Shown here piece after piece: positions 31,101 to 31,487 of a DNA stretch of 64,000 nucleotides (position 1 is the first letter of the stretch; the number at the start of each line of letters is the position of its first letter). A model generated the notes under the pieces. It ran no database searches. It was not told the DNA's origin and saw only the letters and a list, made by a program, of their open reading frames with translations. This DNA comes from an uncultured bacterium (GTDB lineage Bacteria; Babelota; Babeliae; Babelales; Babelaceae). A program made the position numbers and the translations under genes. The stretch covers positions 640,001 through 704,000 of the forward strand of contig CAWKFG010000004.1 in assembly GCA_963848965.1 (NCBI GenBank), written 5' to 3'.

Positions 31101-31487
31101 AGGGGCTTTGCCCCTCTAACCCCAGCAAGGGCACACCCTTGCAACCAGCTCTCTTTGCTCAGAGCTTCCGCTCTTCGCTGGTTCTTTTAAAGCAAAAAAT
31201 CGGTGCGATTTTTTGCAGTTGCACGCCGCTACGCGAGTCTCCATCCCAGGTGGAACGCACCTGGTCTGACGACACTCTGTTTACAGAGATATCATTGATA
31301 TGAAATTACCAAAGGGTAAAACGTGAGTCGGTGACAGGCAACCAGGGAGTTCCCCTGGTTGCTTAAATCGCGTAGCGACTGCTATTGTTAAAAAACGCTG
31401 TGCGTTTTTTAACGCAGAAAGAAAACAAAAAGAAGTAAAAGGGTCCAGGGGTAAGCCCCTGGCAGGGTTAAAGGGACAGAGTCCCTT
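31101..31487. repeat. Symmetric multi-hairpin element: two inverted, structurally homologous ~180-nt units around a central palindrome
   Basis: Left unit (+) and right unit (-) each show four stem-loops in the same order, an identical CGCTACGCGA, a GAAC loop and a CTG..ACTC..TTTAC tail; central ATATCA-T-TGATAT at 31289-31301. Confidence 0.85.

Follow-up and report, generated by a model that had tools for sequence, protein, structure and literature searches.

The window analyzed in this study is a 64,000-nt stretch of DNA (C4:640001-704000) from the 1.73-Mb, 5-contig assembly of a member of the intracellular Dependentiae (TM6, Babeliales-like), which is 88.7% complete and is hereafter called the source genome (G000). 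In this window, the genes of a MutS-like protein (MutS_III and MutS_V domains) and of the F-type ATPase beta subunit (atpD) are divergently oriented, and the region between them holds a non-coding element of ~390 nt that is made of short hairpins (Table 1). This element is one copy of a repeat family that is dispersed, intergenic and mosaic. The family most probably represents hairpin-modular palindromic repeats, selfish or formerly mobile, of the same kind as the repetitive extragenic palindromes (REPs), the bacterial interspersed mosaic elements (BIMEs) and the miniature inverted-repeat transposable elements (MITEs); the existence of dispersed copies supports the REP/MITE-like assignment.

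The initial annotation of this region described a mirror-symmetric multi-hairpin layout, and all of the stems that it named were recovered at their coordinates in the 30700-31900 sequence and with a repeat finder. When the 31095-31495 segment was folded as single-stranded DNA (ssDNA), its free energy was -102 kcal/mol, compared with -52.8 ± 4.3 kcal/mol for 100 dinucleotide shuffles (z = -11.5), none of which was equally good. The GC fraction of the element is 0.49-0.52, versus ~0.37 for the genome. Between the two arms, the outermost 46 nt are 72% complementary and constitute terminal inverted repeats. The general layout is shared by the two arms, as proposed in the initial annotation, except that the hairpin H2b is present in the left arm only. 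Likewise, the 10-mer CGCTACGCGA, which had been regarded as an identical linker, is indeed identical in both arms (100% complementary to TCGCGTAGCG), but it is itself part of a mini-hairpin whose middle pair changes from GC to CG elsewhere. The left H4 is additionally wrapped by an outer interrupted stem, absent from the earlier description; its loop, GGAACGC, is conserved, while the H4 stem is hypervariable.

Table 1. Features of the atpD-upstream copy of the repeat and its flanking genes, in window coordinates
Feature	Position	Strand	Basis
Whole two-armed copy, A-type and B-type arm tail to tail	31091-31499	+	nhmmer profile match C4:671091-671499
Left (A-type) arm	31092-31302	+	Arm-level nhmmer 671092-671302; covariance model R1, 218 bits at 31099-31284
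Right (B-type) arm, left-arm layout without H2b	31289-31498	-	nhmmer 671498-671289; covariance model R1, 86.6 bits, 31323-31488
Left terminal module, H1-TAACCC-H2-AACC	31099-31150	+	Covariance model R2, 67.3 bits
Right terminal module, H1-TAACCC-H2-ACCC	31437-31488	-	Covariance model R2, 65.7 bits
H1 left	31101-31115	+	
H2 left	31125-31142	+	
H2b, AGAGC-TTCC-GCTCT, A-type arms only	31161-31174	+	Alignments A1 and A2; helix 3, 85% paired
H3 left, 11-bp A6/T6 stem	31192-31216	+	100% complementary; helix 4, 98.9% paired in 8 arms
Mini-hairpin (C)CGC-TAC-GCG(A), holding the 10-mer CGCTACGCGA (31227-31236)	31226-31236	+	
H4 left, core 31246-31264, plus outer interrupted stem	31237-31273	+	
Centre: hairpin 31275-31288, palindrome ATATCATTGATAT 31289-31301, hairpin 31307-31320	31275-31320		Sequence and fold
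H4 right	31338-31362	-	100% complementary
Right mini-hairpin TCGCGTAGCG	31368-31377	-	
H3 right	31387-31413	-	100% complementary
H2 right	31445-31462	-	
H1 right	31471-31487	-	
MutS-like protein (MutS_III and MutS_V domains)	28998-31052	-	Pfam scan
F-type ATPase beta subunit, atpD	31609-33069	+	Pfam scan

Copies in the source genome were searched for with blastn, with nhmmer (using a full-element profile built from five full copies and a single-arm profile), and with two covariance models: R1, which represents the arm, and R2, which represents the 51-nt terminal module (hairpin, TAACCC, hairpin, AACCC). The results of blastn, nhmmer and both covariance models were concordant and located 16 arms at 9 loci, seven of them two-armed and two of them holding solo arms (C4:472154-472364 and C4:551532-551758). 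In a full copy, an A-type and a B-type arm, which have diverged from each other, meet at their tails, and each arm comprises 5-6 different short hairpins, strung over ~190 nt and separated by conserved linkers. Five copies have the canonical A+B arrangement, i.e., the window copy and those at C4:477230-477634, C1:159239-159636, C1:353743-354151 and C1:305429-305836, the latter four sharing 82-86% identity with the window copy in alignments of 380-398 nt (blastn); the other two two-armed copies (C4:43473-43866 and C4:268403-268819) are variants in which modules have been swapped, with 72-78% identity (blastn). An inverted R2 module is present at both ends of all seven two-armed copies, and within this genome GC-rich "hairpin + ACCC" modules are confined to the nine loci. 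The initial annotation had stated that many dispersed copies with target-site duplications would make the element an ordinary MITE or REP, and dispersed copies are what was found. The covariance-model search that it had also suggested recovered these further arms and, as described below, matches to the terminal module in five of the 40 other family genomes.

All nine loci are intergenic, lying between mechanically called open reading frames (ORFs), and their Pfam-identified neighbors are unrelated: FtsY, L21 (rplU), GltX, FtsH, transporters and ankyrin-repeat proteins. At seven of the loci, the element starts within 0-74 nt of the preceding stop codon, and the other two, the window copy and C4:551, are located between divergent gene starts; the orientation of the element relative to the flanking genes is mixed. 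A common ORF is excluded by indels between the copies. Modules have been exchanged between arms: arms 043L and 551 combine A-type H1-H3 with a B-type H4, arm 043R shows the reverse combination, and the GGGAC variant of H1 is found in the A arm of two copies and in the B arm of two. In one DNA read set, a single 151-nt contig was identical to 31071-31221, short fragments from other organisms matched atpD, and no contig bridged the element.

The proposal of the initial annotation that compensatory changes maintain the pairing was supported across the 16 arms and other genomes. In eight A-type arms, for which the structure was written from the alignment, 93.8% of the cells are paired, versus 88.2% after shuffling, and 9 of 46 pairs are changed on both sides, a value reached by none of 500 shuffles; slid controls gave 38-48% pairing. 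In the same arms, the middle pair of the mini-hairpin is GC in six and CG in two, and 5 of the 13 pairs of helix 6, the left H4, are changed on both sides. Alignment A3 contains 23 terminal modules, 16 from the source genome and seven hand-picked from R1 matches in three other genomes, and these picked rows lean towards the model because they were chosen from R1 matches. In this alignment, 97.7% of the cells are paired, versus 79.4% after shuffling, and 10 of 13 pairs are changed on both sides (57 cells), with none of 500 shuffles as high on these measures; for further pair types, 10 of 500 shuffles were as high. Alignment A4 was fitted to the model and leans towards structure; its 18 rows comprise the 16 arms and two additional matches, weak or partial, that were left in. 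Here, 95.0% of the cells are paired and 28 of 46 pairs are changed on both sides; 16 rows have letters at the middle pair of the mini-hairpin, which is GC in 13 of them and CG in the other three.

The distribution of variation differs between the hairpins. In the A-type H1, H2, H2b and H3, pairwise identity is 0.84-0.95 in the stems and 0.56-0.61 in the loops; this relation is reversed in H4 (stem, 0.72; loop and bulges, 0.88), whose loop GGAAC is conserved, as is the loop TAC of the mini-hairpin. Wobble cells (GU or UG) are almost absent, amounting to 2 of 299 in A3 and 13 of 747 in A4, the latter mainly in the outer helix, in which the A-arm model is imposed on B arms. Stems are thus held by Watson-Crick compensatory change, both within and between genomes.

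Structures with these characteristics could act in RNA, and one of the proposals of the initial annotation was a pair of convergent ncRNAs. The elements would then be structured parts of transcripts, produced by read-through or convergent transcription, that stabilize 3′ ends, act as terminators or insulators, or are processed to small RNAs; transcript roles of this kind have been proposed for REP, enterobacterial repetitive intergenic consensus (ERIC) and Correia elements. The strong covariation, the very stable fold, and the conserved GGAAC and TAC loops beside a variable H4 stem are consistent with this explanation, which keeps some weight because most copies, here and in the relatives described below, directly follow stop codons and lie in likely 3′ untranslated regions. 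Nevertheless, RNA that is selected on one strand usually tolerates G-U pairs, which are nearly missing here, and each element has the same structure on both strands, is found in either orientation relative to the flanking genes and, at two loci (the window copy and C4:551), stands between divergent starts. The GC hairpins are not followed by a terminator-like U-tract, the only candidate being one weak terminator-like site at chance level. The comparison with Rfam returned no family at the gathering threshold: in an Rfam 15 scan of 30000-33000, the best match was a plant-virus pseudoknot with 25.2 bits, versus a gathering threshold of 38, and eight related loci matched only generic miRNA-hairpin models below gathering. 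The patchy distribution, with a sister species that does not have the module, is also unlike that of a housekeeping RNA. On balance, we consider an RNA function of the family unlikely.

Outside the source genome, sequence similarity is limited to a short part of the element. A blastn search with the element had no match in 40 relatives, and a degenerate core pattern had none in species-representative genomes or in JGI metagenomes. With the arm model R1, weak but significant matches were obtained in three of 40 further genomes in the family (G054, G022 and G007), in which H1-xACCC-H2-ACCC is present at both ends, inverted, with different internal hairpins in between; these copies are likewise located directly after stop codons. 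With the terminal-module model R2 (E ≤ 0.001), matches were found in 5 of the 40: 62 in G007, eight in G022, six in G054, two in G017 and one, borderline, in G012. None was found in G023, a sister species in the genus of G007, nor in G005, which belongs to the genus of G022 and G054. When the R2 search was extended, with stricter filters (E ≤ 1e-5), to 150 other genomes of the order, four had matches, including one from a second family. The 51-nt terminal module is therefore all that is common to the similar two-ended elements of some other genera, and the patchiness of its occurrence is typical of mobile DNA.

The 0.9-Mb genome G007 is the richest of the relatives. Its R2 matches form convergent pairs 210-290 nt apart, corresponding to ~30 two-ended elements, and the 16 that we aligned have sharp ends, AGGGC...GCCCT. 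A TA adjoins the left end of 11 of these 16 elements and the right end of 10, with eight elements having it at both ends; it could represent either a duplication or sequence of the element itself. The aligned G007 elements (L160-L175) also contain a central AAAACGG-loop-CCGTTTT hairpin and a ACGGCAATTGCCGT palindrome, the order of which varies. A pattern derived from the end module matched seven metagenome contigs, all seven of which also have R2 matches, being partly preselected by the pattern; in viral contigs, this pattern had no match. One of the metagenome contigs (L195, 65-74% GC) carries, at 1741-2055 and upstream of a polyphosphate kinase gene, a palindromic element of ~315 nt that has three hairpin-ACCC modules at either end and, in its middle, a perfect palindrome of ~90 nt; the terminal module thus occurs outside Dependentiae.

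The initial annotation suggested a REP/MITE-like relic of a HUH-transposase system. The REP/MITE likeness agrees with the 16 arms at 9 loci, while for the HUH part no Y1_Tnp match was found in the source genome (88.7% complete). The candidate enzymes encoded in the source genome are those of an IS110-like element (three copies), an IS5-like element (four copies), TnpB-like genes (about seven), one IS630-type fragment and two Xer-like recombinases, and the module is neither carried by nor adjoining any of these insertion sequences (ISs), TnpB-like elements or Xer-like recombinases. The eight TnpB matches represent approximately seven Cas12f1-like_TNB genes or fragments (e.g., C4:638627-638830, C4:514783, C4:332362 and C4:613811), and none lies within 5 kb of a repeat copy; the first of these is ~1.2 kb before the window, and the assembly has no Y1 TnpA. 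In G007, two regions between distant module matches were inspected for an autonomous copy and hold only ordinary genes, the distant module pairs enclosing genes for a solute-binding protein, TPR, trigger factor, SmpB and UCH. An IS630-like element of the same genome has, by eye, no AAGGGC-type ends. Two Y1 genes have inverted repeats in their vicinity, but these bear no relation to the present element.

The ISs of the source genome have features of their own. The IS110-like copies (C1:386018-387196, C1:396668-397838 and C4:450970-452147) are 99.7% identical and contain an ORF of 339 amino acids of the DEDD type; a preferred target is suggested by the similar flanks of the copies. Contig C3 (9474 nt) is a 99.5% identical inverted duplicate of C1:387180-396639, a segment that the IS110-like copies bound; this could be a genuine duplication or an alternative assembly of the segment. 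The IS5-family element of ~0.94 kb has four copies that are 99.9-100% identical (C1:401497-402435, C2:5636-6574, C1:120186-121120 and C4:83450-84393), with inverted ends GAGCCTATC... and 3-nt TTA/TAA duplications.

Several observations weigh against a selfish or formerly mobile repeat family. Y1_Tnp (PF01797) has no match in the source genome, G007 or G022, and the partner gene could be absent from the source assembly, since this is 88.7% complete. With filters off, the R2 module was found neither at the Y1_Tnp loci of G054 and G017 nor at the IS630-type DDE_3 fragments of the source genome and G007, and the IS110-like and IS5-like elements have ends unrelated to the repeat. No consistent target-site duplication was seen in the seven two-armed copies of the source genome, only words of 3-6 nt at inconsistent offsets. 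Moreover, similarity runs 7-15 nt past H1 (CTTARCT-like words, read by eye), so the true termini are not fixed. A search for empty sites, in which the G007 loci were compared with the sister genome G023, produced only scraps of 68-97% identity with no collinear flanks. Any spread must be old, given that the copies are only 72-86% identical. Finally, the location of seven of nine copies just past a stop codon fits a transcript role as well as insertion tolerance, and the kept pairing and the conserved H4 loop are also compatible with a host function.

One such function would be that of domesticated cruciform or hairpin DNA sites that are bound by a nucleoid protein, by gyrase or by an Ssn-like nuclease and act, independently of mobility, in supercoiling, recombination or rearrangement. 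Watson-Crick-only pairing on both strands, the conserved linkers and H4 loop, the location of the window copy at a synteny break (see below) and the presence of four small single-domain GIY-YIG ORFs in the source genome would fit sites of this class. Nonetheless, the degenerate pattern of the Ssn-related motif (SRM), as given in PMC11893778, has only two matches in the genome (chance, 1-5 in five shuffles) and none in the nine loci; no repeat hairpins were found in the flanks of the small GIY-YIG ORFs; and the small number of loci, nine in 1.7 Mb, together with the lack of the module in most relatives, also speaks against it. We therefore regard this explanation as very unlikely. As a separate observation, the four GIY-YIG ORFs (82-103 amino acids) are located at C4:521258-521473, C4:523601-523813, C2:4910-5122 and C2:10072-10284, and two of them precede the same AAATTCTGCAGAC-loop-GTCTGCAGTTTTT hairpin.

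The initial annotation also considered the element a candidate replication origin, or a pair of back-to-back single-strand initiation (primase) signals. Hairpins on both strands, a CTG after H4 in both arms, and a local GC skew that flips sign at the divergent gene pair are in line with these proposals. On the genome scale, the cumulative GC skew falls monotonically over the 873-kb contig C4 and does not turn at 671 kb; a turn was seen only on C1, near 570 kb, and dnaA is also located on that contig, at C1:473371-473850. DnaA-box words (≤1 mismatch) are not in excess, with 13 in the window versus 15.8 expected and none in 31091-31499. A chromosomal origin is refuted by the copy number (16 arms dispersed over nine loci) and the skew, and the multi-copy, dispersed chromosomal context also speaks against an initiation signal of the G4 type, so that proposals of this group are scarcely credible.

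Conservation next to atpD, which the initial annotation had suggested checking, does not hold either. The atpD orthologues of 29 relatives are 71-84% identical, and none of their loci has an R1 match within 1.5 kb of atpD, which also argues against an origin. The same 29 loci have no MutS-like gene upstream of atpD, which places the repeat at a synteny break between these two genes. The window copy is either inserted into this break or marks it and has no specific tie to either gene. A sigma-70-like promoter was predicted at 31530-31558, outside the element. Downstream, window positions 31609-34902 hold atpD, an epsilon-like ORF of 80 amino acids and a gene for a HerA-like ATPase, in this order.

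Among known repeats, the family resembles MITEs in being non-coding, ~390 nt long, dispersed (16 arms, 9 loci) and bounded by terminal inverted repeats. It is unlike a MITE with an autonomous partner, in that no IS has the same ends and the H1 and R2 modules are present only in the nine loci. The Correia elements of Neisseria are likewise non-coding, a few hundred nucleotides in length and bounded by long terminal inverted repeats, and we know of no autonomous transposase for MITEs of this type. The TA flanks of the G007 copies add to this likeness; in contrast, the terminal repeats described here are two covarying hairpins rather than plain sequence, and the copies of the source genome have no consistent target duplication. 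Rickettsia palindromic elements (RPEs) are inserted in frame inside genes. They are also palindromic repeats of an obligate intracellular bacterium, and they differ from the present family in that all nine loci are intergenic.

The likeness to the REP, BIME and REPIN sequences of Enterobacteria and Pseudomonas, as described by Di Nocera et al. (2013; PMC3733652), is broader. Like these, the present repeats are intergenic and often just after genes; they consist of short GC-rich hairpins in inverted arrangement, with conserved linkers and mosaic modules; and they form heterodimers with different stems that are patchy between species. These authors describe REPs tagged with GTAG or CGTC, dimers with different stems, and terminal inverted repeat (TIR) families, some of which are double-palindromic and adjoin Y1 "TIRYT" genes (PMC3733652). 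Unlike the GTAG and CGTC REPs given there, the tag at the hairpin foot is TAACCC or (A)ACCC here, and GGGT(T) on the other strand. In addition, the source genome has no match to a REP-associated tyrosine transposase (RAYT/Y1, PF01797), as RAYT-mobilized REPs and BIMEs would require, the arms number 16 rather than hundreds, and the unit, 190 nt long, is built from 5-6 hairpins that differ from each other.

The double-palindromic TIR families of TIRtrons and TIRYT genes, according to the same authors (PMC3733652), also have long palindromic inverted repeats that form dimers or clusters. They have been described in Acidobacteria, among others (PMC3733652), a link that may be relevant to the high-GC soil or peat contigs. 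In the genomes checked, the modules neither enclose nor adjoin a Y1 transposase gene, unlike in TIRtrons and TIRYT, and the GGGGWSAS motif reported for those TIRs (PMC3733652) was not seen in the element by eye. The Ssn/NTS hairpins, which PMC11893778 describes as ssDNA-acting, symbiont-enriched and cut by GIY-YIG Ssn ssDNA nucleases, are similarly oriented hairpins with a conserved flanking tag; the SRM and the arrangement of repeat hairpins around GIY-YIG genes that would complete this likeness are those found to be missing above.

Taken as a selfish or formerly mobile family of the REP/BIME/MITE kind, these repeats may have spread as follows. The terminal double-hairpin module would be the part recognized by the protein that spread the element, and the interior hairpins would be lineage-specific. 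This protein would most likely act on hairpins that DNA forms when single-stranded or extruded as a cruciform, in the manner of HUH transposases or Ssn nucleases. Recognition at the DNA level is more likely than in RNA, because the stems are nearly free of wobble and equally perfect on both strands. Template-switch correction of quasi-palindromes can yield covariation. The covariation among copies may thus have arisen by such palindrome correction, or by selection on master copies for mobility, and need not reflect a host function. A further proposal is that the 51-nt hairpin-ACCC module is a signal for a structure-specific ssDNA transposase or nuclease, beyond Y1/RAYT and the published Ssn-motif systems, that acts across phyla. 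Compensatory changes preserve the module in genomes as different as those of Dependentiae (37% GC) and of soil bacteria (65-74% GC), always as inverted pairs with unrelated interiors. We hold this proposal to be unlikely.

The repeat is a new family of a recognized type, REP/BIME/MITE-like, and a limited literature search found no published description of palindromic or intergenic repeats in Dependentiae. Its identification sets aside a false replication-origin candidate, and it offers a clean case of purely Watson-Crick stem covariation, within and between genomes, without a known partner enzyme. At least one synteny break, the one upstream of atpD, is marked by these repeats, and the 51-nt module can be used as bait for the protein that recognizes it.

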